From Escherichia coli (lineage in GTDB: Bacteria; Pseudomonadota; Gammaproteobacteria; Enterobacterales; Enterobacteriaceae), in the NCBI RefSeq assembly GCF_029227855.1, contig NZ_CP074356.1: DNA of 64,000 nt. One strand, 5' to 3'. How positions within the stretch are numbered: the first letter of the stretch is position 1; each line of letters begins with the position of its first letter. Below the pieces are notes generated by a model, which saw nothing but the letters and a program-made list of their open reading frames with translations, made no database searches and was not told the DNA's origin. Both the position numbers and the translations under genes were made by a program. Of the stretch, positions 5,643 to 57,139 are shown piece by piece.

Positions 5643-5676
5643 AACGAGGCGATATCAAAAAAAGTAAGATGACTGT

Positions 5677-20195: not shown

Positions 20196-20225
20196 GTTTT
20201 CTCTTTCCTGTGGACCGATGCAAGA

Positions 20226-20252
20226 TTTTCGGCCTGGAAAGGAAAAACTTTA
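20226..20252 (-). promoter_or_regulatory. Sigma28 (FliA) class-3 promoter of tsr
   Basis: Reverse strand reads TAAAGTTT-N11-GCCGAAAA about 30 nt upstream of the tsr start (consensus TAAAGTTT-N11-GCCGATAA). Confidence 0.55.
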
Positions 20253-20313
20253 TGAAAAGGTGTAACCCGCCATCCATGGAAAAACCAGGCGCTGGTTATC
20301 AGATATTAAAAAG

Positions 20314-20760
20314 TTATTCATTATCGCCCGGGATGTCTTCTTGTCGGGAATTACCCAGAGCAATAAATTCCTCTAACAGATGGGTTAACTGTTGCATTTT
20401 CTCGGCAGTAAACTGAGCTTCAATCTGCCGATAGGCCTCTTCAATCTGTGTCTGAGCGCGGTTATACAGCGCCTGCCCCTCTTTGGTCAGCGAGATATAG
20501 AGCTTCCGCTGATCATTGATCGGCTTTAATCGCAACACTAAACCGTCGCGTTCCATCCGCGTAAGGATCCCGGTCAGGCTTGGGCGCAAAATGCAGGCGC
20601 GATACGCCAGATCGTGAAAATCCATTGATGGGCTTTCCGCCAGAATACGCACGATGCGCCACTGTTGCTCAGTCAAATTATGCCGTTTAACGATTGGGCG
20701 AAAATAACTCATCGCCGCTTCTCGCGCCTGGAGCAACGCAATGGTTAGAGAGTCGTGCAT
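20314..20760 (-). CDS. hpaR: MarR-family repressor of the hpa meta-cleavage operon
   Basis: ORF 20314..20841; the 148-aa form starts MHDSLTIALLQAREAAMSYF; divergent from hpaG. Confidence 0.85.
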   Translation of the reverse strand: MHDSLTIALLQAREAAMSYFRPIVKRHNLTEQQWRIVRILAESPSMDFHDLAYRACILRPSLTGILTRMERDGLVLRLKPINDQRKLYISLTKEGQALYNRAQTQIEEAYRQIEAQFTAEKMQQLTHLLEEFIALGNSRQEDIPGDNE

Positions 20761-21031
20761 TATCTTTCCCCTGAAAAATTCAAAATCATTAATATAGAAA
20801 CAGTTAATCATCACGTTACCGGGACTGCGCTGCCCCTGCAATTCTTCATTTTATCAAAATTGAGCATGTTTTGTTAACTTGCTGATATTTAATATTTTAT
20901 TATCTTTAAATGTAAATAGTTTGTTAATTAGATCACATTTACATCACTTACTTTTGCCAAACTACGCAATCGGGAATAAAAGTAATCATTAACATATTAA
21001 TGATTAAGATGATCGAATCCGAGGAGTGGTA

Positions 21032-22321
21032 ATGAAAGGCACTATCTTCGCCGTAGCGTTGAACCATCGCAGCCAGCTTGATGCATGGCAGGAAGCGTTC
21101 CAGCAATCCCCCTACAAAACCCCGCCTAAAACTGCGGTCTGGTTTATTAAACCGCGCAATACGGTGATTGGTTGCGGTGAACCGATTCCCTTTCCACAGG
21201 GTGAAAAAGTACTGAGCGGTGCGACTGTTGCGCTGATTGTGGGGAAAACGGCGACGAAAGTACGTGAAGAAGATGCGGCAGAGTACATCGCCGGATATGC
21301 GCTGGCTAACGACGTCAGCCTGCCGGAAGAGAGCTTTTACCGCCCGGCAATCAAAGCAAAATGTCGTGATGGATTCTGCCCCATTGGCGAAACCGTGGCT
21401 CCCAGCAATGTCGATAATCTGACTATCTATACCGAGATCAACGGGCGTCCTGCCGATCATTGGAACACCGCCGATTTACAACGTAACGCCGCGCAGTTGC
21501 TGAGCGCTCTGAGCGAATTTGCCACGCTGAATCCAGGCGATGCCATTCTGCTCGGCACGCCACAGGCGCGCGTGGAAATACAGCCAGGCGATCGCGTGCG
21601 TGTTCTCGCAGAAGGTTTCCCGCCACTGGAAAATCCGGTAGTGGACGAACGTGAAGTGACCACGCGCAAGAGCTTCCCAACGCAGCCACACCCGCACGGC
21701 ACGCTGTTTGCCCTCGGCCTGAACTACGCCGACCACGCCAGCGAACTGGAATTTAAGCCACCGGAAGAACCGCTGGTGTTCCTGAAAGCGCCGAATACCC
21801 TCACTGGCGATAACCAGACCTCCGTGCGCCCGAACAATATTGAATACATGCACTACGAAGCGGAGCTGGTGGTAGTTATTGGCAAGCAGGCGCGTAACGT
21901 CAGCGAAGCCGATGCCATGGATTATGTCGCGGGCTACACCGTGTGTAACGACTACGCCATTCGCGACTATCTGGAAAACTACTACCGCCCTAACCTGCGG
22001 GTAAAAAGCCGCGACGGACTGACGCCGATGCTTTCAACCATCGTGCCGAAAGAGGCGATCCCGGACCCGCATAATCTGACCCTTCGCACCTTCGTCAACG
22101 GCGAGTTACGCCAGCAAGGCACCACCGCCGATCTGATCTTCAGCGTGCCCTTCCTGATCGCCTACTTAAGCGAATTTATGACCCTGAATCCGGGCGACAT
22201 GATCGCCACCGGCACACCAAAAGGCTTATCTGACGTGGTGCCTGGCGATGAAGTAGTGGTGGAAGTAGAAGGCGTGGGCCGCCTGGTGAACCGAATTGTG
22301 AGTGAGGAAACAGCGAAATGA
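21032..22321 (+). CDS. hpaG: Bifunctional 5-oxopent-3-ene-1,2,5-tricarboxylate decarboxylase / 2-hydroxyhepta-2,4-diene-1,7-dioate isomerase
   Basis: About 429 aa with two tandem FAH-fold halves; first gene of the hpaGEDFHI order. Confidence 0.85.
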   Translation: MKGTIFAVALNHRSQLDAWQEAFQQSPYKTPPKTAVWFIKPRNTVIGCGEPIPFPQGEKVLSGATVALIVGKTATKVREEDAAEYIAGYALANDVSLPEESFYRPAIKAKCRDGFCPIGETVAPSNVDNLTIYTEINGRPADHWNTADLQRNAAQLLSALSEFATLNPGDAILLGTPQARVEIQPGDRVRVLAEGFPPLENPVVDEREVTTRKSFPTQPHPHGTLFALGLNYADHASELEFKPPEEPLVFLKAPNTLTGDNQTSVRPNNIEYMHYEAELVVVIGKQARNVSEADAMDYVAGYTVCNDYAIRDYLENYYRPNLRVKSRDGLTPMLSTIVPKEAIPDPHNLTLRTFVNGELRQQGTTADLIFSVPFLIAYLSEFMTLNPGDMIATGTPKGLSDVVPGDEVVVEVEGVGRLVNRIVSEETAK

Positions 22322-23784
22322 AAAAAGTAAATCATTGGATCAACGGCAAAAATGTTGCAGGTAACGACTACTTCCAGACCACCAATCCGGCAACGGGTGA
22401 AGTGCTGGCAGATGTGGCCTCCGGCGGTGAAGCGGAGATCAATCAGGCGGTAGCGGCAGCGAAAGAGGCGTTCCCGAAATGGGCCAATCTGCCGATGAAA
22501 GAGCGTGCGCGCCTGATGCGCCGTCTGGGCGATCTGATCGACCAGAACGTGCCTGAGATCGCCGCGATGGAAACCGCGGACACGGGCCTGCCGATCCATC
22601 AGACCAAAAATGTATTGATCCCACGCGCTTCTCACAACTTTGAATTTTTCGCGGAAGTCTGCCAGCAGATGAACGGCAAGACCTATCCGGTTGACGACAA
22701 GATGCTCAACTACACGCTGGTGCAACCGGTAGGCGTTTGTGCGCTGGTATCGCCGTGGAACGTGCCGTTTATGACCGCCACATGGAAGGTCGCGCCGTGT
22801 CTGGCGCTGGGCAATACCGCGGTGTTGAAAATGTCGGAACTCTCCCCGCTGACCGCTGACCGCCTGGGTGAGCTGGCGCTGGAAGCCGGTATTCCGGCGG
22901 GCGTGCTGAACGTGGTACAGGGCTACGGCGCAACCGCAGGCGATGCGCTGGTTCGTCATCATGACGTACGTGCCGTGTCGTTCACCGGCGGTACGGCCAC
23001 CGGGCGCAACATCATGAAAAACGCCGGGCTGAAAAAATACTCCATGGAACTGGGCGGTAAATCGCCGGTGCTGATTTTTGAAGATGCCGATATTGAACGC
23101 GCGCTGGACGCTGCCCTGTTCACCATCTTCTCGATCAACGGCGAGCGCTGCACCGCCGGTTCGCGCATCTTTATTCAGCAAAGCATCTACCCGGAATTCG
23201 TTAAACGCTTTGCCGAACGCGCCAACCGTCTGCGCGTGGGCGATCCGAACGATCCGAATACCCAGGTTGGGGCGCTTATCAGCCAGCAACACTGGGAAAA
23301 AGTCTCCGGCTATATTCGTCTCGGCATTGAAGAAGGCGCAACCCTGCTAGCGGGCGGTCCGGATAAACCGTCCGACCTGCCTGCGCACCTGAAAGGCGGC
23401 AACTTCCTGCGCCCAACGGTGCTGGCTGACGTTGATAACCGTATGCGCGTCGCCCAGGAAGAGATTTTCGGGCCGGTCGCCTGTCTGCTGCCGTTTAAAG
23501 ACGAAGCTGAAGGTCTGCGCCTGGCAAATGACGTGGAGTATGGCCTCGCGTCGTACATCTGGACGCAGGATGTCAGCAAAGTGTTACGCCTGGCGCGTGG
23601 CATTGAAGCAGGCATGGTGTTCGTCAACACCCAGAACGTGCGCGACCTGCGCCAGCCGTTTGGCGGCGTAAAAGCCTCCGGCACCGGGCGTGAAGGCGGT
23701 GAGTACAGCTTCGAAGTGTTCGCGGAAATGAAGAACGTCTGCATTTCCATGGGCGACCATCCAATTCCGAAATGGGGAGTCTGA
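22318..23784 (+). CDS. hpaE: 5-carboxymethyl-2-hydroxymuconate semialdehyde dehydrogenase
   Basis: 488 aa aldehyde dehydrogenase (catalytic Cys region GERCTAGSR); start overlaps hpaG stop. Confidence 0.9.
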   Translation: MKKVNHWINGKNVAGNDYFQTTNPATGEVLADVASGGEAEINQAVAAAKEAFPKWANLPMKERARLMRRLGDLIDQNVPEIAAMETADTGLPIHQTKNVLIPRASHNFEFFAEVCQQMNGKTYPVDDKMLNYTLVQPVGVCALVSPWNVPFMTATWKVAPCLALGNTAVLKMSELSPLTADRLGELALEAGIPAGVLNVVQGYGATAGDALVRHHDVRAVSFTGGTATGRNIMKNAGLKKYSMELGGKSPVLIFEDADIERALDAALFTIFSINGERCTAGSRIFIQQSIYPEFVKRFAERANRLRVGDPNDPNTQVGALISQQHWEKVSGYIRLGIEEGATLLAGGPDKPSDLPAHLKGGNFLRPTVLADVDNRMRVAQEEIFGPVACLLPFKDEAEGLRLANDVEYGLASYIWTQDVSKVLRLARGIEAGMVFVNTQNVRDLRQPFGGVKASGTGREGGEYSFEVFAEMKNVCISMGDHPIPKWGV

Positions 23785-23785
23785 T

Positions 23786-24637
23786 ATGGGTAAGTTAGCG
23801 TTAGCCGCCAAAATCACGCACGTACCGTCGATGTATCTCTCTGAACTACCAGGGAAAAACCACGGTTGCCGCCAGGGTGCGATCGACGGGCATAAAGAGA
23901 TCAGCAAGCGTTGCCGGGAAATGGGCGTCGATACCATTATCGTTTTCGATACTCACTGGCTGGTCAACAGTGCTTATCACATCAACTGTGCAGACCATTT
24001 TGAAGGCGTCTACACCAGCAACGAGCTGCCGCATTTTATTCGTGACATGACCTACAACTACGAGGGCAACCCGGAGTTGGGGCAGCTTATTGCCGATGAA
24101 GCCTTAAAACTCGGCGTGCGGGCAAAAGCGCACAACATTCCCAGCCTGAAACTGGAATACGGCACGCTGGTGCCAATGCGCTACATGAATGAAGACAAGC
24201 ACTTCAAAGTGGTCTCCATTTCGGCTTTCTGCACGGTTCACGATTTTGCCGACAGCCGCAAGCTTGGCGAAGCGATTTTGAAAGCAATCGAACAGTACGA
24301 CGGCACCGTGGCGGTCCTTGCCAGCGGTTCGTTATCGCACCGCTTTATTGACGATCAGCGTGCGGAAGAAGGGATGAACAGCTACACCCGCGAGTTCGAC
24401 CGCCAGATGGACGAGCGCGTGGTGAAGCTGTGGCGCGAAGGCCAGTTCAAAGAGTTCTGCAATATGCTGCCGGAGTACGCCGACTACTGCTACGGCGAAG
24501 GCAATATGCACGACACGGTGATGCTGCTGGGGATGCTCGGCTGGGATAAATACGACGGCAAGGTGGAGTTTATCACCGAGCTGTTCCCAAGCTCCGGTAC
24601 TGGTCAGGTTAACGCTGTTTTCCCGCTTCCCGCGTAA
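23786..24637 (+). CDS. hpaD: 3,4-dihydroxyphenylacetate 2,3-dioxygenase (extradiol)
   Basis: 283 aa, LigB-type extradiol dioxygenase, cluster context. Confidence 0.85.
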   Translation: MGKLALAAKITHVPSMYLSELPGKNHGCRQGAIDGHKEISKRCREMGVDTIIVFDTHWLVNSAYHINCADHFEGVYTSNELPHFIRDMTYNYEGNPELGQLIADEALKLGVRAKAHNIPSLKLEYGTLVPMRYMNEDKHFKVVSISAFCTVHDFADSRKLGEAILKAIEQYDGTVAVLASGSLSHRFIDDQRAEEGMNSYTREFDRQMDERVVKLWREGQFKEFCNMLPEYADYCYGEGNMHDTVMLLGMLGWDKYDGKVEFITELFPSSGTGQVNAVFPLPA

Positions 24638-24646
24638 GGACGTTTT

Positions 24647-25027
24647 ATGCCGCACTTTATCGTTGAATGTACTGAAAATATTCGTGAAGAAGCCCGCTTA
24701 CCTGAGCTGTTTGCCAGTGTTAACACTGCACTGGCGGCGACGGGGATTTTTCCGCTTGGGGGAATACGTAGCCGGGCGCACTGGATCGATACCTGGCAAA
24801 TGGCTGATGGCAAGCACGATTACGCCTTTGTGCATATGACGCTAAAAATCGGCAGCGGGCGCAGTCTGGAAAGCCGTCAGGAAGTGGGCGAAATGGTGTT
24901 TGATCTGATTAAAACGCACTTCGCCTCACTGATGGAGAGCCGTTACCTGGCGCTTTCATTTGAGATTGCAGAGCTGCACCCGACGTTGAATTTCAAACAG
25001 AACAACGTACACGCGTTGTTTAAATAA
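24647..25027 (+). CDS. hpaF: 5-carboxymethyl-2-hydroxymuconate isomerase
   Basis: 126 aa [16 protein letters not shown]... Confidence 0.85.
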
Positions 25028-25094
25028 ATTTGTACCAGCTTCCAGGCCGGATGATAAGGCGCAGCCGCATCCGGCAATGCCACAGGATATCGCC

Positions 25095-25898
25095 ATGTTC
25101 GATAAACACACCCACACCCTGATCGCCCAGCGTCTGGATCAGGCAGAAAAACAGCGCGAACAGATCCGCGCGATCTCGCTGGATTACCCGGAGATCACCA
25201 TCGAAGATGCCTACGCCGTACAGCGCGAATGGGTCCGCCTGAAAATTGCCGAAGGCCGTACGCTGAAAGGCCACAAAATCGGCCTGACCTCGAAAGCGAT
25301 GCAGGCCAGCTCACAAATCAGCGAACCGGATTACGGCGCGCTGCTGGACGACATGTTCTTCCACGATGGCAGCGATATCCCGACCGATCGCTTTATCGTG
25401 CCGCGCATTGAAGTGGAGCTGGCTTTCGTGCTGGCAAAACCGCTGCGTGGGCCAAACTGCACGCTGTTCGACGTTTACAACGCCACGGACTATGTGATCC
25501 CGGCGCTGGAGCTGATCGACGCTCGCTGCCACAACATCGATCCGGAAACCCAGCGCCCGCGTAAAGTGTTCGACACCATTTCTGATAACGCCGCCAATGC
25601 CGGGGTGATCCTCGGTGGTCGTCCCATTAAGCCCGATGAGTTGGATCTGCGTTGGATCTCCGCCCTGATGTATCGTAATGGCGTGATTGAAGAAACTGGC
25701 GTCGCCGCTGGCGTGCTGAATCACCCGGCAAACGGCGTGGCCTGGCTGGCGAACAAACTCGCACCGTATGACGTACAACTGGAAGCCGGGCAAATCATTC
25801 TCGGCGGTTCGTTTACCCGCCCGGTTCCGGCGCGTAAGGGCGACACCTTCCACGTCGATTACGGCAACATGGGCTCCATTAGCTGCCGCTTTGTTTAA
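25095..25898 (+). CDS. hpaH: 2-oxo-hept-4-ene-1,7-dioate hydratase
   Basis: ORF 25077..25898; the 267-aa form starts [20 protein letters not shown]. Confidence 0.85.
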
Positions 25899-25908
25899 GG
25901 AGAGAACG

Positions 25909-26697
25909 ATGGAAAACAGTTTTAAAGCGGCGCTGAAAGCAGGCCGCCCGCAGATCGGATTATGGCTGGGGCTAAGTAGCAGCTACAGCGCAGAGTTACT
26001 GGCCGGAGCAGGATTCGACTGGTTATTGATCGACGGTGAGCACGCGCCGAATAACGTGCAAACCGTGCTCACCCAGCTACAGGCGATTGCGCCCTACCCC
26101 AGCCAGCCGGTAGTACGTCCATCGTGGAACGATCCGGTGCAAATCAAACAACTGCTGGACGTCGGCACACAAACCTTACTGGTGCCGATGGTACAAAACG
26201 CCGACGAAGCCCGTGAAGCGGTACGCGCCACCCGTTATCCCCCCGCCGGTATTCGCGGTGTGGGCAGTGCGCTGGCTCGCGCCTCGCGCTGGAATCGCAT
26301 TCCTGATTACCTGCAAAAAGCCAACGATCAAATGTGCGTGCTGGTGCAAATCGAAACGCGTGAGGCAATGAAGAACTTACCGCAGATTCTGGACGTGGAA
26401 GGGGTCGACGGCGTGTTTATCGGCCCGGCGGATCTGAGCGCCGATATGGGTTATGCCGGTAATCCGCAGCACCCGGAAGTACAGGTCGCCATTGAGCAGG
26501 CGATCGTGCAGATCCGCGAAGCGGGCAAAGCGCCGGGGATCCTGATCGCCAATGAGCAACTGGCAAAACGCTATCTGGAACTGGGCGCGCTATTTGTCGC
26601 CGTCGGCGTTGACACCACCCTGCTCGCCCGCGCCGCCGAAGCGCTGGCAGCACGGTTTGGCGCGCAGGCCACGACCGTTAAGCCCGGCGTGTATTAA
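25909..26697 (+). CDS. hpaI: 4-hydroxy-2-oxo-heptane-1,7-dioate aldolase
   Basis: 262 aa from [22 protein letters not shown]; class II aldolase family. Confidence 0.85.
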
Positions 26698-26806
26698 TGT
26701 CGATCCGGCCTACACGCGCACTAAACCATAGGCTGGATAAGACGTTTACGCCGCATCCGCCATAAACCTTGTCGTACCCTACAAAAATCCCATTAGAGGA
26801 AGAAAA

Positions 26807-28183
26807 ATGAGCGACACCTCACCTGCCATACCGGAGAGTATCGATCCGGCGAATCAGCATAAAGCGCTGACTACCGGACAACAGGCGGTTATTAAGAAGC
26901 TGTTTCGCCGCCTGATCGTCTTTCTGTTCGTGCTGTTTATCTTCTCGTTCCTTGATCGCATCAACATCGGCTTTGCCGGGCTAACGATGGGACGCGACCT
27001 CGGTCTGAGCGCCACCATGTTTGGCCTCGCCACCACCCTGTTCTATGCCGCTTATGTCATCTTCGGCATTCCCAGCAACATTATGCTGAGTATTGTCGGT
27101 GCGCGGCGCTGGATCGCCACCATCATGGTGCTCTGGGGCATCGCCTCTACGGCCACCATGTTTGCCACTGGCCCCACCAGCTTATACGTACTGCGTATAC
27201 TGGTTGGCATTACCGAAGCCGGCTTTCTGCCTGGCATTCTGCTGTATTTAACCTTCTGGTTTCCGGCCTATTTCCGCGCCCGTGCCAACGCCTTGTTTAT
27301 GGTAGCAATGCCGGTAACGACAGCGCTGGGATCGATCGTTTCCGGCTACATTTTGTCGCTGGATGGCGTAATGGCATTAAAAGGCTGGCAGTGGCTGTTT
27401 TTGCTGGAAGGCTTCCCGTCGGTATTACTCGGCGTCATGGTGTGGTTCTGGCTTGATGACTCACCGGACAAAGCTAAGTGGCTGACGAAAGAAGACAAAA
27501 AATGCCTGCAAGAGATGATGGATAACGATCGTCTGACGCTGGTTCAGCCAGAGGGAGCCATCAGTCACCACGCCATGCAACAACGCAGCATGTGGCGGGA
27601 GATCTTCACTCCGGTGGTGATGATGTATACCCTGGCGTATTTCTGCCTGACCAACACACTTAGTGCAATCAGCATCTGGACACCGCAGATCCTACAAAGC
27701 TTTAATCAGGGCAGCAGTAATATCACCATCGGCCTGCTGGCCGCCGTACCGCAGATTTGTACCATTCTCGGGATGATCTACTGGAGCCGTCACTCAGATC
27801 GCCGCCAGGAACGAAGGCATCACACCGCCCTTCCTTATTTGTTCGCTGCCGCTGGTTGGTTACTGGCTTCGGCAACTGATCACAACATGATCCAGATGCT
27901 GGGGATCATTATGGCTTCGACCGGATCATTCAGCGCAATGGCGATTTTCTGGACAACACCGGATCAGTCCATCAGCCTGCGGGCACGAGCGATCGGTATT
28001 GCGGTGATCAACGCCACTGGCAACATTGGTTCAGCGTTAAGTCCGTTTATGATCGGCTGGTTGAAAGATCTGACCGGCAGCTTTAACAGTGGATTGTGGT
28101 TTGTTGCCGCGCTGCTGGTGATTGGTGCGGGGATTATCTGGGCAATTCCAATGCAGTCCTCCCGTCCGCGAGCGACCCCGTAA
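26807..28183 (+). CDS. hpaX: MFS 4-hydroxyphenylacetate transporter
   Basis: 458 aa, 12 predicted membrane spans, between hpaI and hpaA. Confidence 0.85.
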   Translation: MSDTSPAIPESIDPANQHKALTTGQQAVIKKLFRRLIVFLFVLFIFSFLDRINIGFAGLTMGRDLGLSATMFGLATTLFYAAYVIFGIPSNIMLSIVGARRWIATIMVLWGIASTATMFATGPTSLYVLRILVGITEAGFLPGILLYLTFWFPAYFRARANALFMVAMPVTTALGSIVSGYILSLDGVMALKGWQWLFLLEGFPSVLLGVMVWFWLDDSPDKAKWLTKEDKKCLQEMMDNDRLTLVQPEGAISHHAMQQRSMWREIFTPVVMMYTLAYFCLTNTLSAISIWTPQILQSFNQGSSNITIGLLAAVPQICTILGMIYWSRHSDRRQERRHHTALPYLFAAAGWLLASATDHNMIQMLGIIMASTGSFSAMAIFWTTPDQSISLRARAIGIAVINATGNIGSALSPFMIGWLKDLTGSFNSGLWFVAALLVIGAGIIWAIPMQSSRPRATP

Positions 28184-28192
28184 GGAACGACG

Positions 28193-29083
28193 ATGTGTGA
28201 CCGTCAGATTGCCAATATTGATATCAGCAAAGAGTACGATGAAAGCCTGGGCACGGACGATGTGCATTATCAGTCCTTCGCCCGCATGGCGGCCTTTTTT
28301 GGCCGCCATATGCTGCCACATCGCCACGAACAGTACTTTCAGATGCATTTCCTCAATAGCGGACAGATTGAGCTACAGCTTGACGATCATCGCTACTCGG
28401 TGGAAGCGCCCCTGTTTGTCCTGACGCCGCCGTCAGTACCTCATGCGTTTATTACGGAGTCTGACGCCGACGGTCATGTGTTGACGGTACGGGAAGATCT
28501 GATCTGGCCCCTGCTGGAAGTTCTTTATCCGGGCACTCGGGAAACCTTCGGCCTGCCGGGGATTTGCCTGTCACTGGCAGATAAACCCGACGAACTGGCG
28601 GCGCTGGAACACTATTGGCAACTGATAGAGCGGGAATCGGTGGAACAACTGCCTGGACGGGAACACACCCTGACGCTACTGGCACAGGCAGTGTTCACCC
28701 TACTGCTGCGTAACGCAAAACTCGACGACCATGCCGCCAGCGGAATGCGCGGAGAATTAAAACTGTTCCAGCGTTTTCATATGCTGATTGAAAGCCATTT
28801 TCACCAGCACTGGACAGTACCGGATTACGCTAACGAACTGCATATCACCGAATCACGCCTCACGGACATCTGCCGCCGCTTTGCCAACCGTCCGCCAAAA
28901 CGGTTGATTTTCGACAGGCAGCTGCGAGAAGCCAAGCGGCTGCTGCTGTTTTCTGATAACGCCGTGAACAATATTGCCTGGCAACTCGGTTTTAAGGATC
29001 CGGCTTATTTTGCGCGCTTTTTTAATCGTTTAGTCGGTTGCTCGCCCAGTGCTTACCGTGCCAAAAAAGTACCTGTGACGTGA
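28193..29083 (+). CDS. hpaA: AraC/XylS-family activator of hpaBC
   Basis: 296 aa with C-terminal AraC-type HTH (NIAWQLGFKDPAYFARFF). Confidence 0.85.
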   Translation: MCDRQIANIDISKEYDESLGTDDVHYQSFARMAAFFGRHMLPHRHEQYFQMHFLNSGQIELQLDDHRYSVEAPLFVLTPPSVPHAFITESDADGHVLTVREDLIWPLLEVLYPGTRETFGLPGICLSLADKPDELAALEHYWQLIERESVEQLPGREHTLTLLAQAVFTLLLRNAKLDDHAASGMRGELKLFQRFHMLIESHFHQHWTVPDYANELHITESRLTDICRRFANRPPKRLIFDRQLREAKRLLLFSDNAVNNIAWQLGFKDPAYFARFFNRLVGCSPSAYRAKKVPVT

Positions 29084-29333
29084 AAATCCCTTAGCCTTAA
29101 CGGGAAACCAGGCATCACCTGCTATTCCTCTTTCTCCGCCTGGAGCAAGGGGATTTAGTAACGTCAAAAATAGCTAAAAGCGACCTCGATCACAAAACCG
29201 TACCCGACCTGAAAAGTACCAGCCATTGTCCCAAAAGTGTCTTCCCGTAATCGCCCCTGCAAGCTTCAATTGAATAACAAAAACAACACACAAAATTAAC
29301 AATCGTATTCCGATTAATACTGTAGAGGTCGAC

Positions 29334-30896
29334 ATGAAACCAGAAGATTTCCGCGCCAGTACCCAACGTCCGTTCACCGGGGAAGAGTATCTGAAAAGCC
29401 TGCAGGATGGTCGCGAGATCTATATCTATGGCGAGCGAGTGAAAGACGTCACCACTCATCCGGCATTTCGTAATGCGGCAGCGTCTGTTGCCCAACTGTA
29501 CGACGCGCTGCACAAACCGGAGATGCAGGACTCTCTGTGTTGGAACACCGACACCGGCAGCGGCGGCTATACCCATAAATTCTTCCGCGTGGCGAAAAGT
29601 GCCGACGACCTGCGCCAGCAACGCGACGCCATCGCTGAGTGGTCACGCCTGAGCTATGGCTGGATGGGCCGTACCCCAGACTACAAGGCTGCTTTCGGTT
29701 GCGCACTGGGCGCGAATCCGGGCTTTTACGGTCAGTTCGAGCAGAACGCCCGTAACTGGTACACCCGTATTCAGGAAACTGGCCTCTACTTTAACCACGC
29801 GATTGTTAACCCACCGATCGATCGTCATTTGCCGACCGATAAAGTGAAAGACGTTTACATCAAGCTGGAAAAAGAGACTGACGCCGGGATTATCGTCAGC
29901 GGTGCGAAAGTGGTTGCCACCAACTCGGCGCTGACTCACTACAACATGATTGGCTTCGGCTCGGCACAAGTGATGGGCGAAAACCCGGACTTCGCACTGA
30001 TGTTCGTTGCGCCAATGGATGCCGATGGCGTGAAATTAATCTCCCGCGCCTCTTATGAGATGGTCGCGGGTGCTACCGGCTCCCCGTACGACTACCCGCT
30101 CTCCAGCCGCTTCGATGAGAACGATGCGATTCTGGTGATGGATAACGTGCTGATCCCATGGGAAAACGTGCTGATCTACCGCGATTTTGATCGCTGCCGT
30201 CGCTGGACGATGGAAGGCGGTTTCGCCCGTATGTATCCGCTGCAAGCCTGTGTACGCCTGGCAGTGAAACTCGACTTCATTACGGCACTGCTGAAAAAAT
30301 CACTCGAATGTACCGGCACCCTGGAGTTCCGTGGTGTGCAGGCCGATCTCGGTGAAGTGGTGGCGTGGCGCAACACCTTCTGGGCATTGAGTGACTCGAT
30401 GTGTTCAGAAGCGACACCATGGGTCAACGGTGCTTATTTACCGGATCATGCCGCACTGCAAACCTATCGCGTACTGGCACCAATGGCCTACGCGAAGATC
30501 AAAAACATTATCGAACGCAACGTTACCAGTGGCCTGATCTATCTCCCTTCCAGTGCCCGTGACCTGAACAATCCGCAGATCGACCAGTATCTGGCGAAGT
30601 ATGTGCGCGGTTCGAATGGTATGGATCACGTCCAGCGCATCAAGATCCTCAAACTGATGTGGGATGCCATTGGCAGCGAGTTTGGTGGTCGTCACGAGCT
30701 GTATGAAATCAACTACTCCGGTAGCCAGGATGAGATTCGCCTGCAGTGTCTGCGCCAGGCACAAAGCTCCGGCAATATGGACAAGATGATGGCGATGGTT
30801 GATCGCTGCCTGTCGGAATACGACCAGAACGGCTGGACTGTGCCGCACCTGCACAACAACGACGATATCAACATGCTGGATAAGCTGCTGAAATAA
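29334..30896 (+). CDS. hpaB: 4-hydroxyphenylacetate 3-monooxygenase, oxygenase component
   Basis: 520 aa MKPEDFRASTQRPFTGEEYLKSLQDGREIYIYGERVKDVTTHPAFRN. Confidence 0.9.
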   Translation: MKPEDFRASTQRPFTGEEYLKSLQDGREIYIYGERVKDVTTHPAFRNAAASVAQLYDALHKPEMQDSLCWNTDTGSGGYTHKFFRVAKSADDLRQQRDAIAEWSRLSYGWMGRTPDYKAAFGCALGANPGFYGQFEQNARNWYTRIQETGLYFNHAIVNPPIDRHLPTDKVKDVYIKLEKETDAGIIVSGAKVVATNSALTHYNMIGFGSAQVMGENPDFALMFVAPMDADGVKLISRASYEMVAGATGSPYDYPLSSRFDENDAILVMDNVLIPWENVLIYRDFDRCRRWTMEGGFARMYPLQACVRLAVKLDFITALLKKSLECTGTLEFRGVQADLGEVVAWRNTFWALSDSMCSEATPWVNGAYLPDHAALQTYRVLAPMAYAKIKNIIERNVTSGLIYLPSSARDLNNPQIDQYLAKYVRGSNGMDHVQRIKILKLMWDAIGSEFGGRHELYEINYSGSQDEIRLQCLRQAQSSGNMDKMMAMVDRCLSEYDQNGWTVPHLHNNDDINMLDKLLK

Positions 30897-30913
30897 CGCA
30901 GCAGGAGGTTAAG

Positions 30914-31426
30914 ATGCAATTAGATGAACAACGCCTGCGCTTTCGTGACGCGATGGCCAGCCTGTCGGCAGCGGTAAATATTATCACCACCGAGGGCGAC
31001 GCCGGACAATGCGGGATTACGGCAACGGCCGTCTGCTCGGTCACGGATACACCACCATCGCTGATGGTGTGCATTAACGCCAACAGTGCGATGAACCCGG
31101 TTTTTCAGGGCAACGGCAAGTTGTGCGTCAACGTCCTCAACCATGAGCAGGAACTGATGGCACGCCACTTCGCGGGCATGACGGGCATGGCGATGGAAGA
31201 GCGTTTTAGCCTCTCATGCTGGCAAAAAGGTCCGCTGGCGCAGCCGGTGCTGAAAGGTTCGCTGGCCAGTCTTGAAGGTGAGATCCGCGATGTGCAGGCA
31301 ATTGGCACACATCTGGTGTATCTGGTGGAGATTAAAAACATCATCCTCAGTGCAGAAGGTCACGGACTTATCTACTTTAAACGCCGTTTCCATCCGGTGA
31401 TGCTGGAAATGGAAGCTGCGATTTAA
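30914..31426 (+). CDS. hpaC: 4-hydroxyphenylacetate 3-monooxygenase, flavin reductase component
   Basis: 170 aa MQLDEQRLRFRDAMASLSAAVNIITTEG. Confidence 0.9.
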   Translation: MQLDEQRLRFRDAMASLSAAVNIITTEGDAGQCGITATAVCSVTDTPPSLMVCINANSAMNPVFQGNGKLCVNVLNHEQELMARHFAGMTGMAMEERFSLSCWQKGPLAQPVLKGSLASLEGEIRDVQAIGTHLVYLVEIKNIILSAEGHGLIYFKRRFHPVMLEMEAAI

Positions 31427-31432
31427 GCTCCA

Positions 31433-31468
31433 GCCCCTTCACGCATTCGTCGAAGGGGCATTTTTATT
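31433..31468 (+). terminator. Rho-independent terminator after hpaC
   Basis: ccccttcacgcattcgtcgaagggg hairpin followed by catttttatt. Confidence 0.6.
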
Positions 31469-31511
31469 GTGATCTCAATCACATATCCACCCGATGAATA
31501 ATTCTTGCCCA

Positions 31512-31539
31512 ACCGCTCACCGCCATTCCTGACCGCTTA
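31512..31539 (+). promoter_or_regulatory. Candidate BtsR (YehT) operator: direct repeat ACCGCTCA ... ACCGCTTA upstream of btsT
   Basis: Two ACC(G/A)CT(C/T)A copies with a 12-nt spacer about 280 nt upstream of the btsT start; site assignment from memory of the yjiY promoter. Confidence 0.4.
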
Positions 31540-31818
31540 CGTCCCTAAAATAACCACTCAGTTATTTACCTTACTTTACGCGCGCGTAACTCTGGCAACA
31601 TCACTGCAGGATAGCGGTCAATTTACCTCCTCAAACGCAACGCAAACCTAGAACGGCTTCGGCCTATGATTAACAAATTACTCTATGGATTTTGGTTTGC
31701 AGGAAGGCAGCAAGTGAGTGAATCCCCGGGAGCTTACAACAGTAAGTGACAGGGGTGAACGAACGCAGCTGCCGCACCTGTAAGCCAAAAGACGACGAGT
31801 AAAATGCCAGGTTTTACT

Positions 31819-33969
31819 ATGGATACGAAAAAACTATTCAAGCACATACCCTGGGTGATTCTCGGAATCATCGGTGCATTCTGCCTCGCGGTAGTTGCAT
31901 TACGTCGGGGGGAGCACGTCAGCGCCCTGTGGATCGTGGTCGCCTCTGTGTCGGTGTATCTGGTGGCGTATCGCTACTACAGTCTGTACATCGCCCAGAA
32001 GGTGATGAAACTCGACCCCACGCGCGCGACGCCTGCGGTTATTAACAACGACGGTCTGAACTACGTTCCGACCAACCGTTACGTGTTGTTTGGTCACCAC
32101 TTCGCCGCTATCGCCGGTGCTGGTCCGCTGGTCGGTCCGGTTCTCGCCGCACAGATGGGCTACCTGCCTGGCACGCTGTGGCTGCTGGCGGGGGTAGTGC
32201 TGGCCGGTGCGGTACAGGACTTTATGGTGCTGTTTATCTCCTCTCGCCGTAACGGCGCATCTCTCGGTGAGATGATCAAAGAAGAGATGGGACCAGTACC
32301 GGGGACTATCGCGCTGTTTGGCTGTTTCTTAATCATGATCATCATCCTCGCCGTTCTGGCGCTGATTGTGGTTAAAGCCCTGGCCGAAAGTCCGTGGGGT
32401 GTCTTCACCGTTTGCTCAACCGTACCAATTGCGCTGTTTATGGGTATCTACATGCGCTTTATCCGTCCGGGGCGTGTGGGTGAAGTCTCTGTCATTGGTA
32501 TCGTGCTGCTGGTTGCCTCTATCTACTTCGGTGGCGTGATTGCTCACGATCCGTACTGGGGTCCGGCACTGACCTTTAAAGACACCACCATTACCTTCGC
32601 GCTGATTGGCTATGCGTTTGTTTCCGCGCTGCTGCCGGTGTGGCTGATCCTCGCACCACGCGACTATCTGGCAACCTTCCTGAAAATCGGCGTTATCGTC
32701 GGCCTGGCGCTGGGTATCGTGGTGCTGAACCCGGAACTGAAAATGCCTGCGATGACCCAGTACATTGACGGTACTGGCCCGCTGTGGAAAGGCGCTCTGT
32801 TCCCGTTCCTGTTCATCACCATCGCCTGTGGTGCGGTATCTGGCTTCCACGCACTGATCTCTTCCGGTACGACGCCGAAACTGCTGGCTAACGAAACCGA
32901 CGCGCGTTTCATTGGCTACGGCGCAATGCTGATGGAGTCCTTCGTGGCGATTATGGCGCTGGTTGCTGCGTCCATCATCGAACCGGGTCTTTACTTCGCG
33001 ATGAACACCCCGCCTGCTGGCCTTGGCATCACCATGCCTAACCTGCATGAAATGGGTGGCGAGAACGCGCCGATCATCATGGCGCAGCTGAAAGACGTTA
33101 CCGCACACGCGGCAGCGACCGTCAGCTCCTGGGGCTTCGTGATTTCGCCAGAGCAGATCCTGCAAACCGCGAAAGACATTGGTGAGCCTTCTGTCCTGAA
33201 CCGTGCAGGTGGTGCGCCGACGCTGGCGGTAGGTATCGCTCACGTGTTCCACAAAGTGCTGCCGATGGCTGACATGGGCTTCTGGTATCACTTCGGTATT
33301 CTGTTCGAAGCCCTGTTCATCCTGACCGCGCTGGATGCGGGTACTCGTTCTGGCCGCTTTATGCTGCAAGACCTGCTGGGTAACTTCATCCCGTTCCTGA
33401 AAAAAACCGACTCTCTGGTTGCTGGTATCATCGGTACTGCGGGCTGTGTGGGTCTGTGGGGCTACCTGCTGTATCAGGGCGTGGTCGATCCGCTGGGCGG
33501 CGTTAAGAGCCTGTGGCCGCTGTTCGGTATCTCCAACCAGATGCTGGCAGCCGTGGCGCTGGTACTGGGTACCGTTGTGCTGATTAAGATGAAGCGCATC
33601 CAATACATCTGGGTAACTGTTGTTCCGGCTGTATGGCTGCTTATCTGCACCACCTGGGCGCTGGGTCTGAAACTGTTCAGTACCAACCCGCAGATGGAAG
33701 GCTTCTTCTACATGGCAAGCCAGTACAAAGAGAAGATTGCTAACGGTACTGACCTGACGGCGCAGCAGATTGCCAACATGAACCACATCGTTGTGAACAA
33801 CTACACCAACGCAGGCCTGAGTATTCTGTTCCTGATTGTGGTGTACAGCATCATCTTCTACGGTTTCAAAACTTGGCTTGCGGTGCGTAACAGCGACAAA
33901 CGTACTGACAAAGAAACACCGTACGTTCCAATCCCGGAAGGCGGCGTGAAGATCTCTTCGCACCACTAA
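31819..33969 (+). CDS. btsT: CstA-family pyruvate/H+ symporter
   Basis: ORF 31804..33969; the 716-aa form starts MDTKKLFKHIPWVILG; multi-span membrane protein. Confidence 0.9.
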   Translation: MDTKKLFKHIPWVILGIIGAFCLAVVALRRGEHVSALWIVVASVSVYLVAYRYYSLYIAQKVMKLDPTRATPAVINNDGLNYVPTNRYVLFGHHFAAIAGAGPLVGPVLAAQMGYLPGTLWLLAGVVLAGAVQDFMVLFISSRRNGASLGEMIKEEMGPVPGTIALFGCFLIMIIILAVLALIVVKALAESPWGVFTVCSTVPIALFMGIYMRFIRPGRVGEVSVIGIVLLVASIYFGGVIAHDPYWGPALTFKDTTITFALIGYAFVSALLPVWLILAPRDYLATFLKIGVIVGLALGIVVLNPELKMPAMTQYIDGTGPLWKGALFPFLFITIACGAVSGFHALISSGTTPKLLANETDARFIGYGAMLMESFVAIMALVAASIIEPGLYFAMNTPPAGLGITMPNLHEMGGENAPIIMAQLKDVTAHAAATVSSWGFVISPEQILQTAKDIGEPSVLNRAGGAPTLAVGIAHVFHKVLPMADMGFWYHFGILFEALFILTALDAGTRSGRFMLQDLLGNFIPFLKKTDSLVAGIIGTAGCVGLWGYLLYQGVVDPLGGVKSLWPLFGISNQMLAAVALVLGTVVLIKMKRIQYIWVTVVPAVWLLICTTWALGLKLFSTNPQMEGFFYMASQYKEKIANGTDLTAQQIANMNHIVVNNYTNAGLSILFLIVVYSIIFYGFKTWLAVRNSDKRTDKETPYVPIPEGGVKISSHH

Positions 33970-33977
33970 CCGTGTTT

Positions 33978-34005
33978 AGCCCCGCTTCGGCGGGGCTTTG
34001 TTCTT
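33978..34005 (+). terminator. Rho-independent terminator after btsT
   Basis: agccccgcttcggcggggct hairpin followed by ttgttctt. Confidence 0.6.
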
Positions 34006-34018
34006 ATCAGAGTGAACT

Positions 34019-34222
34019 ATGTTTGGTAACTTAGGACAGGCAAAAAAATATCTCGGCCAGGCGGCGAAGATGTTGATTGGCATTCCAGACTACGACAACT
34101 ACGTCGAGCATATGAAGACCAACCATCCCGACAAGCCGTACATGAGCTATGAAGAATTCTTCCGCGAACGCCAGAATGCACGCTACGGCGGCGATGGTAA
34201 AGGCGGTATGCGCTGTTGTTAA
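34019..34222 (+). CDS. yjiX: Small conserved protein YjiX
   Basis: 67 aa [48 protein letters not shown]. Confidence 0.8.
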
Positions 34223-34231
34223 TGGAGAGAG

Positions 34232-35189
34232 CATGAACCCGATTGCAGTTACCCTACTCACCGGTTTTTTAGGCGCGGGCAAAACCACCCTGCTGCGCCA
34301 TATTCTTAACGAACAACACGGCTACAAGATTGCCGTGATTGAAAACGAATTCGGCGAAGTCTCCGTTGATGATCAACTGATTGGCGACCGCGCCACGCAG
34401 ATCAAAACGCTGACCAACGGCTGCATCTGCTGTTCGCGCTCCAACGAGCTGGAAGACGCACTACTCGACCTGCTGGATAATCTCGACAAGGGCAATATTC
34501 AGTTCGACCGTCTGGTCATTGAATGCACCGGCATGGCCGATCCCGGCCCGATTATTCAGACCTTTTTCTCCCATGAGATTTTATGCCAGCGTTACCTGCT
34601 GGACGGTGTGATTGCGCTGGTGGATGCGGTACATGCCGACGAGCAGATGAACCAGTTCACCATCGCCCAGTCCCAGGTTGGCTACGCCGACCGTATTCTG
34701 CTGACCAAAACCGACGTCGCAGGCGAAGCAGAAAAACTGCGTGAACGCCTGGCGCGCATCAACGCCCGTGCACCGGTCTACACCGTCACCCACGGCGACA
34801 TCGACCTGGGCCTGCTGTTCAACACCAACGGTTTTATGCTGGAAGAGAACGTCGTCAGCACCAAACCGCGTTTCCACTTTATCGCGGATAAACAAAACGA
34901 TATTTCGTCGATTGTGGTAGAACTGGATTACCCGGTAGATATCAGCGAAGTTTCCCGGGTGATGGAAAACCTGCTTCTGGAATCGGCAGATAAACTGCTG
35001 CGTTACAAAGGGATGCTGTGGATTGACGGCGAACCTAACCGCCTGCTGTTCCAGGGCGTCCAGCGCCTCTACAGCGCCGACTGGGACCGCCCGTGGGGCG
35101 ATGAAAAACCACATAGCACAATGGTGTTTATCGGGATTCAGTTGCCGGAGGAAGAGATTCGGGCAGCGTTTGCGGGGTTGAGGAAGTAA
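34232..35189 (+). CDS. yjiA: CobW/G3E-family GTPase YjiA
   Basis: 318 aa with P-loop GFLGAGKTTLL and CICC metal-binding motif. Confidence 0.9.
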
Positions 35190-35200
35190 TTTTGGATGAT

Positions 35201-35234
35201 GGCCGCCATGTGGCGGCCTGAATTATTTTTTGTT
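35201..35234 (+). terminator. Terminator hairpin between convergent yjiA and brnA
   Basis: ggccgccatgtggcggcc inverted repeat followed by tgaattattttttg. Confidence 0.5.
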
Positions 35235-35525
35235 CTGATCGCGCAGCATCGCTTCACGTAAAATTGCGTTCAGGCGAGTTTGATAGCCTTTACCTGGTCG
35301 CTTCAACCATTCCATCACATCAGCATCAATACGCACCGAAGCCTGAGTTTTCAATGGCCGATAAAACTTACCGCGTTCGGCGTTAGACCATTGCTCATCG
35401 CTGGAAGGTGGGATATCACTGTAATCAATATCTTCGTCGGATTTATTCGTCAGCGCCTTCAGTTCGGCCTCATGCTGCACATCGAGTGTAGAGGAGGTCC
35501 CTCGTTTATGTTTAACCATGCTCAT
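35223..35525 (-). CDS. brnA: BrnA-like antitoxin (DUF4415-type small DNA-binding protein)
   Basis: ORF 35223..35666; about 100 aa from MSMVKHKRG...; C-terminus ...RIDADVMEWLKRPGKGYQTRLNAILREAM matches the BrnA family; start overlaps brnT stop. Confidence 0.7.
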   Translation of the reverse strand: MSMVKHKRGTSSTLDVQHEAELKALTNKSDEDIDYSDIPPSSDEQWSNAERGKFYRPLKTQASVRIDADVMEWLKRPGKGYQTRLNAILREAMLRDQNKK

Positions 35526-35808
35526 AGCGATTCCTCTCTTTACGATCTGCTTTTCGTGCACTGATGATTCGAATAATTTCATTTCCGCTTTCGAAACGGA
35601 TGGTATGCGCAACCAGAATAACCACGATGCCGTAAACCAGGCCGATTGTCTGCCAGCGATACTCACCGTTTTCTATGCGTTCTTGCTGTGACAAATGTTG
35701 TGGATCATCAAACAATAACACCGCATCTTCAAAGCGGATGCCATGTTTCACCCGATTACTTTTGGCCTTGTTTTCATCCCATTCAAACTCCATTGGCATA
35801 ATTGCCAT
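35512..35808 (-). CDS. brnT: BrnT-like toxin (DUF497, RelE-fold ribonuclease)
   Basis: ORF 35512..35826 (TTG start); from first ATG: MAIMPMEFEWDENKAKSNRVKHGIRFEDA...IRIISARKADRKERNRYE, the BrnT signature. Confidence 0.7.
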   Translation of the reverse strand: MAIMPMEFEWDENKAKSNRVKHGIRFEDAVLLFDDPQHLSQQERIENGEYRWQTIGLVYGIVVILVAHTIRFESGNEIIRIISARKADRKERNRYEHG

Positions 35809-35997
35809 CCCTAATTGTATATACAAAAATGTATCTACAATTATTCTGCAATTATAGCGTTGATGTTGGAAATAGCATCACGTTTCGAATAATCAACCAT
35901 GAAATTGACAATGAGTAAGTTGGACTTGATTCATCCAATAGAATTTCTCGCCTGACATGGCACACTAAACACCTCGCTGTCGGGTAATGACTCCAAC

Positions 35998-36500
35998 TTA
36001 CTGATAGTGTTTTATGTTCAGATAATGCCCGATGACCTTGTCATGCAGCTCCACCGATTTTGAGAACGACAGTGACTTCCGTCCCAGCCTTGCCAGATGT
36101 TGTCTCAGATTCAGATTATGTCGCTCAATGCGCTGAGTGTAACGCTTGCTGATAACGTGCAGCTTTCCCTTCAGGCGTGATTCATACAGCGGCCAGCCAT
36201 CCGTCATCTATACTACGACCTCAAAGGCCGACAGCAGGCTCAGAAGACGCTCCAGTGTGGCCAGAGTGCGTTCACCGAAGACGTGGCCACAACCGTCTTC
36301 CGAAGCCTGTCATACGCGTAAAACAGCCAGCGCTGGCGCGATTTAGCCCCGACATAGCCCCACTGTTCGTCCATTTCCGCGCAGATAATCACATCACTGC
36401 CCGGTTGTATGCGCGAGGTTACCGACTGCGGCCTGAGTTTTTTAAGTGACGTAAAACCGTGTTGAGGCCAACGCCCATAATGCGTGCACTGGCGCGACAT
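35998..36500 (-). pseudogene. insB: IS1 insB frame, disrupted (1-nt deletion relative to copy 2 gives a premature stop; split into two ORFs)
   Basis: Track ORFs 36240..36500 and 35998..36207; protein diverges from InsB after ...[12 protein letters not shown] and stops; direct comparison with copy 2 shows a 1-nt gap. Confidence 0.6.
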
Positions 36501-36694
36501 CCGACGCCATTCATGGCCATATCAATGATTTTCTGGTGCGTACCGGGCTGAGAGGCGGTGTAAGTGAACTGCAGTTGCCATGTTTTACGGCAATGAGAGC
36601 AGAGATAGCGCTGATGTCCGGCAGTGCTTTTGCCGTTACGCACCACGCCTTCAGTAGCGGAGCAGGAAGGACATCTGATGGAAATGGAAGCCAC
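36419..36694 (-). CDS. insA: IS1 InsA
   Basis: 91 aa [43 protein letters not shown]. Confidence 0.9.
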
Positions 36695-37007
36695 GCAAGC
36701 ACCTTAAAATCACCATCATACACTAAATCAGTAAGTTGGCAGCATTACCAAATTTTAATTACACTTAAGGTGTATATTTTCTATGCAAGCCATCAATTAA
36801 AGAGGTGTAATGTGCTGATGACTATTTGTAATCGTTATACATTCTGACCTGGAGTCAGAAGGTATTTCTCTGTCTGTGTATTCGCAGGCAGTGTGGTTGA
36901 TTACATGAAATTCAGTACATTTGTCCTTCTCGCCTGCCTTTCGTCATTACCGACGGTATTGAATTTCGTTTTCCCCATTGGGTTCTCCGGACAAGGAGTT
37001 GTTTGTT

Positions 37008-56604: not shown

Positions 56605-56623
56605 TACAATCATCTCTTCGGCT

Positions 56624-57127
56624 TCAGCTGTAGGTATAGGTGATGCTAATCACTGCCTGAATGGTTCCCTGAGTGGCTCCGCCATTTACCGTCAATGCTC
56701 TGACCTGTAACGGGAAGTGCGCTGATTGTGAGGAATCATCCACCTGAACTGTTTTGGTTGCGCCACTATTCAATGTGTTGCCACTGTCATCCTGTAGCTC
56801 TAACTGGATGTTTTGCGCGGTCCCCTGGTTTTTATAATATCCGGTACTGTCGGCTGCCCCGCTGAAGCTGGCAGTGACCCTCGACGTTCCCACCGGACAA
56901 TTAGTCAACTCAAGCGCAACATCATGCCAGGCCGATGCCGCCCCGGCAGACATCAGACTGAAAGAATAAAGATCGCCGAGATCTACCGTGGCATTGGTGG
57001 TGGAAACCGTGCACGGTTTGGCGACGACCTTACCGTTCACCGTGATGGTGACATCGGCTGCCTGTATCGTCGCACTTGCGAGCGCCAATATTGCCGCCAA
57101 TACATACCCACGTTTGCACCATTTCAT
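56624..57127 (-). CDS. fimG: Type 1 fimbrial minor subunit FimG
   Basis: ORF 56624..57133; MKWCKRGYVLAAILALASATIQAADVTITVNGKVVAKPCTVST. Confidence 0.9.
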   Translation of the reverse strand: MKWCKRGYVLAAILALASATIQAADVTITVNGKVVAKPCTVSTTNATVDLGDLYSFSLMSAGAASAWHDVALELTNCPVGTSRVTASFSGAADSTGYYKNQGTAQNIQLELQDDSGNTLNSGATKTVQVDDSSQSAHFPLQVRALTVNGGATQGTIQAVISITYTYS

Positions 57128-57139
57128 GAGCATCTCCAG

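Follow-up and report, generated by a model that had tools for sequence, protein, structure and literature searches.

[quoted passage not shown]

The locus described here lies in a window of 64,000 nucleotides of Escherichia coli DNA (contig NZ_CP074356.1) and is very probably a chromosomal BrnT/BrnA operon, a functional toxin-antitoxin system of type II that is autorepressed and works by the standard BrnTA mechanism. Most likely it is an addictive resident that preserves itself where the immigration control region (ICR) of Enterobacteriaceae borders yjiA, and not a demonstrated defence system. As an earlier note on this DNA had described, two overlapping genes are found on the minus strand. 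The upstream gene, brnT (35512-35799, minus strand), has its ATG at 35799 and its TAA stop at 35512-35514, and encodes a predicted ribonuclease toxin of 95 residues belonging to the BrnT family (DUF497, RelE-like fold); the downstream gene, brnA (35223-35525, minus strand), encodes an antitoxin of 100 residues belonging to the BrnA family (DUF4415). The peptide motifs from which the pair had been recognised are indeed present, FEWD.NK...KHG..F...IRIISARKA..ER..YE in the upstream ORF and DADVMEWLKRPGKGYQTRLNAILREAM in the downstream one, and the proposed check against the DUF497 and DUF4415 profiles gives a significant match for both proteins: Pfam PF04365 (BrnT_toxin) matches BrnT over model positions 1-77 of 77 with an E-value of 5.3e-24, and PF14384 (BrnA_antitoxin) matches residues 37-93 of BrnA over model positions 1-68 of 68 with an E-value of 3.1e-17. 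Moreover, BrnT is identical to RefSeq WP_001297643.1, named "BrnT family toxin", and BrnA is identical to WP_000063160.1, named "BrnA antitoxin family protein", so that Pfam, the RefSeq names of identical proteins and a solved toxin-antitoxin complex with an 84%-identical toxin, to be discussed below, all agree with the family identity that the note had given. The NCBIfam models match neither BrnT nor BrnA at E-values up to 0.01, and the brnTA annotation hence rests on Pfam-level families.

The arrangement of the two genes is also as previously claimed, with the toxin gene first and a short overlap. As read from the sequence, the last 14 nt of brnT are also the first 14 nt of brnA (35512-35525, minus strand), and the Shine-Dalgarno sequence of brnA, GAGAGGA, is located just upstream of brnA and within brnT. 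The overlap suggests that translation of the two genes is coupled, and the same 14 nt are shared in the RefSeq annotation and in the loci of Salmonella, Citrobacter, Enterobacter and Kosakonia. With two small, co-oriented and overlapping genes and a candidate operator at the promoter, the locus has the layout of a type II toxin-antitoxin operon, and its reading as a brnT/brnA operon of this type with the toxin first is supported. As for its extent, the interval 35223-35826 proposed in the note holds at its lower limit, while its upper limit is simply the first TTG of a mechanically delimited ORF, and the supported start of brnT is at 35799. This TTG at 35826 was considered as the start codon of brnT and rejected, as it sits inside the conserved palindromes upstream of the gene, and the Met encoded at 35799, or a residue shortly after it, is the first residue of the RefSeq protein, of the orthologues and of the crystallised protein. 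More specifically, the N-terminus of WP_001297643.1 is MPMEFEWD, the orthologues in five other genera begin at this Met or two codons after it, and chain A of PDB 7VD7 starts at Pro2, which fits the ATG at 35799.

As for protein structure, BrnT is 84% identical to the toxin in PDB 7VD7 (chain A) over the full length, with 94 residues aligned, and residues 14-57 of BrnA match the 44-residue antitoxin chain of the same complex with an E-value of 4.9e-16. A second match is to BrnT of Brucella abortus (PDB 3U97 chain A), the founding member of the family, with an E-value of 1.6e-4 and an identity of 34% in the alignment. It is by these two sequence matches that the RelE-like fold, a four-stranded antiparallel sheet on short helices, is assigned to the E. 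coli toxin. The Brucella BrnT/BrnA pair belongs to the same Pfam families and has the same toxin-first bicistronic order as the E. coli pair, though its toxin is only 34% identical and is without the region of an 8-residue insertion in E. coli BrnT. According to PMC5086665, the ribonuclease activity of Brucella BrnT requires D6, E7, K9, R41 and E78. These residues align with D8, E9, K11, R48 and E88 of E. coli BrnT, in which all five are therefore present. Four of them, D8, K11, R48 and E88, are invariant across our alignment of six BrnT sequences, while the position of Brucella E7 is occupied by Ala or Thr in Salmonella, Citrobacter, Enterobacter and Kosakonia; because of this substitution, E9 may not be essential in the enterobacterial clade. 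In addition, a K-H-G motif and F30 have been found important in an Acidovorax relative of BrnT (PMC10714953), and both K18-H19-G20 and F30 are invariant in the six-sequence alignment.

The antitoxin appears to be divided into two parts. From its match to the antitoxin chain of 7VD7, the segment of residues ~14-57 would be the toxin-binding part of BrnA, and residues ~58-100 are putatively a DNA-binding domain of the ribbon-helix-helix type. Between Salmonella, Citrobacter and Kosakonia the last 43 residues of BrnA hardly vary. In a single-sequence AlphaFold2 model of BrnA, residues 61-67 are extended and residues 68-74 and 79-98 are helical. A strand-helix-helix layout would agree with this, though the mean pLDDT of the model, 59.6, is too low for a fold search. 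When the C-terminal 49 residues were compared with the PDB by sequence, only chance-level matches were returned and no solved structure was found for this part.

The mechanism that we propose is drawn by analogy from the Brucella pair and the 7VD7 complex, from which ribonuclease activity, neutralisation by binding and autorepression are inferred for the E. coli proteins. As summarised in PMC5086665 and PMC10714953, the Brucella work is that of Heaton et al. (2012, J Biol Chem 287:12098), and in the former summary Brucella BrnTA is described as a 2:2 complex with repressor activity on its own promoter, with BrnT as a RelE-like ribonuclease that inhibits translation. The E. coli pair is expected to share this mechanism in its three aspects, namely the 2:2 complex, the autorepression and the translation-inhibiting ribonuclease. 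In such a scheme brnT and brnA would be co-transcribed from a promoter just upstream of brnT, and translation of the overlapping brnA, coupled to that of brnT, would supply BrnA. Free BrnT, a small ribonuclease of RelE-like fold, would degrade RNA and thereby bring translation and growth to a stop, unless the middle segment of BrnA (~14-57) wraps around the toxin and blocks it. The C-terminal domain of BrnA, probably a ribbon-helix-helix, would dimerise and bind two TGTAnATACA palindromes that follow the -10 box and precede the ribosome-binding site, such that the BrnTA complex would repress its own operon; and BrnT would be released whenever BrnA is depleted, whether through proteolysis, blocked gene expression or loss of brnA.

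The regulatory sequences upstream of brnT merit a closer description. The candidate BrnA operator (35816-35839) is composed of two 10-bp palindromes, TGTATATACA (35816-35825) and TGTATCTACA (35830-35839), both of the form TGTAnATACA, separated by 4 T/A and having their centres 14 bp apart, and they are located between a TATAAT box and the ribosome-binding site of brnT, AGGGA. Allowing at most one mismatch, a search of the 64-kb window with TGTATATACA gives only these two matches, and the block also shows up as an inverted repeat (I2). In an alignment of the upstream regions of E. coli (two alleles), Salmonella, Citrobacter, Enterobacter and Kosakonia, a single block, TTGTAtATAC-TTTT-TGTATATACAAT, stands upstream of brnT and is invariant across six genera, while the remaining intergenic sequence diverges, and in Enterobacter and Kosakonia the sequence upstream of the palindromes diverges completely. 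The tandem palindromes are therefore likely to be the operator of BrnA, a reading drawn from sequence conservation that fits the near-invariance of the C-terminal 43 residues of BrnA across genera.

The promoter is assigned less firmly. A perfect TATAAT at 35851-35856 on the minus strand, read from the sequence and accompanied by a poor -35 region, was chosen by eye as the -10 box of brnTA, and this assignment is tentative because our consensus promoter scan gave no minus-strand promoter for brnTA at its threshold. The box is kept in E. coli, Salmonella and Citrobacter and is absent in Enterobacter and Kosakonia; an alternative is another promoter within the palindromes. At the other end of the operon a GC-rich hairpin (35201-35218), with a 7-bp stem and a 4-nt loop, lies between the convergent stops of yjiA (35189) and brnA (35223). 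It was matched by the terminator scan on the plus strand and folds as RNA with -16.5 kcal/mol (z -4.8), with its T-run on the yjiA side, and it is likely a terminator shared by yjiA and brnA. In E. coli K-12, which has no brnTA, homology to the window ends precisely with the stop codon of yjiA, and the hairpin is hence part of the brnTA segment. As for RNA families, Rfam finds nothing in or near brnTA, and its only matches in the window are three tRNA-Leu genes.

The distribution of the two genes among genomes gives a further view of their function. By megablast at a coverage of at least 80%, about one in three complete E. coli genomes has the intact pair (1780 of 5426); with one exception the matches are chromosomal and single-copy, and the records listed bear the names "BrnT family toxin" and "BrnA antitoxin family protein" beside yjiA. 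Of these complete genomes, 2110 have an intact brnA and 1780 an intact brnT. About 330 genomes, or ~16% of those bearing brnA, hence keep brnA with brnT disrupted, while apparently none has brnT alone; these figures come from genomes that are not phylogenetically independent, and they take the 1780 with brnT and the 1780 with the pair to be the same genomes because the counts are equal. Two structurally distinct deletions of brnT explain the examples inspected, and both spare brnA: the first removes 158 bp inside brnT and leaves its first 34 codons, and the second, of ~290 bp, takes away the 5' three-quarters of brnT together with the palindromes and the -10 box. The occurrence of orphan antitoxins without orphan toxins is the pattern expected if BrnT is active and cannot be tolerated without BrnA. 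The same tendency to lose the toxin is known in the homologous loci of Pseudomonas putida brnTA (PP_4530-4529), where 23% have lost it (PMC7280312). The P. putida pair is also chromosomal, though it resides in another genomic context, and its toxin is mild in experiments, with no effect on the growth rate when the antitoxin is deleted (PMC7280312); chromosomal BrnT toxins can hence be mild.

Such observations might alternatively be read as signs of decay, with the locus being a decaying or domesticated remnant in which BrnT is barely toxic and BrnA is kept mainly as a small transcription factor. In favour of this can be quoted the growth-neutral toxin of P. putida, the deletion of brnT in ~16% of brnA-bearing genomes without apparent harm, and a dN/dS of 0.43 for brnT within E. 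coli, a value which comes from only 8 substitutions. Between genera, however, the comparison with Salmonella and Citrobacter yields dN/dS values of 0.025-0.05 for brnT and about 0.05 for brnA, ratios which indicate strong purifying selection on both genes and which, like the Pfam E-values, place the pair well outside chance, and all the catalytic residues of BrnT are intact. The imbalance of about 330 antitoxin-only genomes against apparently no toxin-only ones is, moreover, what an active toxin predicts. We therefore regard the remnant explanation as very improbable and retain the reading of a functional operon.

The divergence of the pair between genera deserves an observation of its own. 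Compared with Salmonella or Citrobacter, dS of the E. coli brnT and brnA is saturated at 1.7-3.8, while that of the adjacent yjiA is 0.63-0.70 despite the conserved synteny. The small size and the codon usage of the genes may contribute to this saturation; deep allelic lineages, or exchange of the pair together with the variable region, are both possible explanations. The comparison bears also on the complex 7VD7, whose chains are deposited only as 'toxin' and 'antitoxin', and for which our literature search returned no publication and one unrelated paper only. Because its toxin shares 98% of its residues with a Salmonella enterica BrnT, the complex can be inferred to be of Salmonella origin. 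The S. enterica loci with that BrnT carry hsdM, hsdR, mrr, brnT, brnA, yjiA, yjiX, btsT and tsr, and agree with E. coli in neighbourhood, gene lengths and overlap. The E. coli toxin nevertheless differs from the 7VD7/Salmonella BrnT in 16% of its residues, with dS of 1.7-3.8 against 0.7 for yjiA, and since synonymous sites are saturated, the E. coli and Salmonella brnTA would be deeply diverged alleles and not recent orthologues.

We now consider the genomic context, which is essential for any role beyond self-preservation. The order brnT-brnA-yjiA is conserved in Salmonella, Citrobacter and Kosakonia, and the Enterobacter pair adjoins yjiN. The earlier note had placed the pair in a defence-island slot, and the location in the variable slot between yjiA and mdtM/yjiN is right; in the window, however, this slot has no defence genes, the only occupants between yjiA and mdtM being brnTA and a dead IS1. 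The degenerate IS1 (35983-36750, minus strand, 768 bp) is 183 bp upstream of brnT, with mdtM beyond it. Its inverted-repeat ends are intact and insB is interrupted, and RefSeq labels it 'IS1 family transposase, frameshifted; internal stop'. On its two sides stand different 9-bp sequences, TCGCTGTCG and AAATTTTAA, so that a target duplication is absent. In the comparison with strain Ecol_AZ162 the homology extends to 35982 and resumes at 36749 after 11.3 kb of that strain are skipped, and the skipped segment holds a restriction endonuclease gene, hsdM, hsdS, hsdR, symE, yjiS, yjiR and an rpn gene. Most simply, this cargo was lost by an IS1-mediated adjacent deletion or by recombination between two IS1 copies. 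The resulting brnT-IS1 haplotype is common, since the junction is present in 1112 of the 5426 complete E. coli genomes. Elsewhere in the window, an 11.5-kb block absent from strain 042 (20256-31804) was considered as a defence island and rejected, as it is an ordinary hpa catabolic cluster.

Does the operon then stabilise the locus? By post-segregational-style killing, the pair could guard the ICR cargo, or the yjiA-side boundary, from deletion. Several features would suit such a role. The IS1-associated deletion of 11.3 kb ends 183 bp short of brnT and leaves the operon, the palindromes and the -10 box intact, although a single deletion end-point is anecdotal; and the deletions which do enter the module take brnT and spare brnA. 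Toxin-antitoxin pairs on plasmids typically serve plasmid maintenance. Relatives of the pair with 72% identity are found on 5.4-kb plasmids of Klebsiella and Citrobacter, and many distant ones on plasmids of Acinetobacter, which is consistent with the usual addiction behaviour of the family. On the other hand, the cargo has been lost in this lineage, and 1112 genomes have the brnT-IS1 junction; the loss of the cargo while brnTA stayed means that any protection reaches no further than the module itself. Moreover, K-12 and more than half of E. coli are without the pair and yet keep the ICR cargo. A stabilising role for the locus at large thus seems unlikely to us, and the preferred reading remains that of an addictive module which preserves itself.

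A role in phage defence was the other suggestion of the note. By abortive infection, the shut-off of host expression by a phage would deplete the labile BrnA, and the BrnT set free would destroy RNA and abort the infection. The setting of the pair in other strains lends this some appeal, for in many genomes it directly adjoins Mrr-like, type I restriction-modification, GmrSD or Fic genes in the yjiA-yjiN hotspot; brnAT is grouped with the other ICR toxin-antitoxin systems in a review (PMC12707154); and abortive infection is a known activity of other toxins in the RelE/ParE superfamily (PMC11980606). However, none of the models of PADLOC-DB v2.0.0 matches BrnT or BrnA at E-values up to 0.1, and no report of phage protection by any BrnTA was found in the literature searched. 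The neighbours in the window, yjiA, the dead IS1 and mdtM, do not make a defence-gene neighbourhood, and the pair stands alone after the deletion of the defence cargo here and in about 1100 other genomes. Instead of being exchangeable cargo, it is a fixed syntenic resident by yjiA across genera, and the phage genomes give only 4 matches, one of which is a Salmonella contig. Abortive infection by this pair is accordingly quite improbable in our opinion. With no PADLOC match, and with the adjoining restriction cargo lost while brnTA stayed, neither of the two roles proposed in the note found support.

A combined role can also be conceived, in which brnTA is no passive selfish module and would be a conserved 'gatekeeper' of the ICR, acting through an abortive-infection ribonuclease that phage shut-off triggers or holding the yjiA-side boundary of the hypervariable defence slot in place as a barrier to deletion. 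We give this little credence, but if true it could explain the synteny of brnTA across genera while the sequence beyond turns over, and the saturated dS relative to yjiA could then reflect allelic lineages maintained for a long time. What we consider most likely is still the addictive resident of the ICR edge described at the outset.

In the prior literature the pair is by no means new. The proteins WP_001297643.1 and WP_000063160.1 are each on at least 1000 contigs, including those of E. fergusonii, E. albertii and cryptic Escherichia clades, and PGAP names brnTA in thousands of genomes. A 2025 EcoSal Plus review on restriction-modification biology describes the yjiA-yjiN immigration control region ("hotspot 36") and lists brnAT among its toxin-antitoxin systems (PMC12707154), and the references attached to this passage concern Rpn and not brnAT. 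Two other systems listed there together with brnAT for the same hotspot, symE/symR and Rpn, belong to protein families and mechanisms unrelated to brnTA, and both are absent in the window, lost with the IS1-associated deletion. In the main text of the hotspot paper of Hochhauser et al., yjiA and mdtM are not mentioned. The note had known of no characterisation of the pair at this E. coli locus. This holds insofar as our search of the literature on brnTA in the E. coli and Salmonella ICR found no experimental study of either and no wet-lab test of the E. coli pair, whereas the pair itself had already been recognised in RefSeq/PGAP and in the review. In other words, brnTA beside yjiA is an already known, ordinary module.

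As a discovery, therefore, the operon matters little, being named in RefSeq, present in about one third of complete E. coli genomes, related to a close homologue with a solved complex, and listed as an ICR resident. A phage-defence phenotype, if real, would be of moderate interest, and the present results point to none. For the biology of the family, the two TGTAnATACA palindromes provide a concrete candidate operator for work on the regulation of enterobacterial BrnTA, and the ~330 orphan antitoxins against apparently zero orphan toxins offer cheap evidence that BrnT is active in vivo. For the organism, this strain type is wholly without hsd, mrr and mcr, the classical restriction locus of E. 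coli, and an IS1 scar stands in its place, which bears on transformability and phage sensitivity.

In the immigration control region (ICR), the variable slot between yjiA and yjiN for restriction genes, the window carries a degenerate IS1 (35983-36750) whose insB is split by an internal stop. By comparison with strain Ecol_AZ162, this element stands in place of about 11.3 kb of cargo, and the genes thereby missing from the window are those of a restriction endonuclease, hsdMSR, symE, yjiS, yjiR and rpn; the strain is therefore of a type without hsd, mrr and mcr at the classical locus. The 9-mers flanking the IS1, TCGCTGTCG and AAATTTTAA, are unequal and thus form no target duplication. The junction of the IS1 on the brnT side is found in 1112 of the 5426 complete E. 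coli genomes compared, whereas that on the mdtM side is found in only about 450, and such a mismatch may come from IS1-mediated rearrangements or from undercounting.

As for the toxin-antitoxin pair adjoining yjiA, brnT and brnA (35223-35799) show saturated dS values of 1.7-3.8 between E. coli and Salmonella/Citrobacter (loci L006 and L010), while yjiA, their syntenic neighbour, gives only 0.63-0.70 in the same comparison. This excess may reflect deep allelic lineages, or else exchange with the variable region. Moreover, brnT has been lost through two distinct small deletions, both of which leave brnA intact, namely in E. coli SA186 (locus L004, 10304-10441) and at a second locus (L016, 6304-6419). 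The SA186 deletion also takes away the putative -10 box (TATAAT, at 35851-35856 in the window) and the two tandem palindromes, candidate BrnA operator sites, and therefore brnA there would need read-through from the upstream Fic-family gene.

The type 1 fimbrial operon is cut short at a second IS1 (58570-59331), with the nanC/nanM region beyond it. What remains of the operon, on the minus strand at 55702-58540, is fimH, fimG and fimF together with a 3' piece of fimD, and fimB, fimE, fimA, fimI and fimC are absent from it (55702-59331). In strain 042 the same nanC-side junction is occupied by an IS1, but the deletion there is larger and leaves a fimH remnant alone.

Rfam and ARAGORN matched nothing over the window except leuQPV, a cluster of three tandem tRNA-Leu(CAG) genes (5441-5763). 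The 11.5-kb block between tsr and btsT (20256-31804) was considered as a defence candidate and rejected, as it is the hpa gene cluster for 4-hydroxyphenylacetate catabolism, an ordinary accessory metabolic trait. It is absent from strain 042, and 2019 of the 5426 genomes match at least 80% of a 12-kb query containing it.

When the stretches 20000-32000 and 34000-37000 were compared with strain JNEC-KY178 (NZ_AP045174.1), the hpa region was 100% identical, yet the ICR of that strain is K-12-like (mrr, hsdRMS, symE and others) and has no brnTA directly after yjiA. From these alignments the window looks mosaic, and an identical hpa region beside a different ICR implies a recombination breakpoint near yjiA, which fits the reputation of the ICR as a "bastion of polymorphism".
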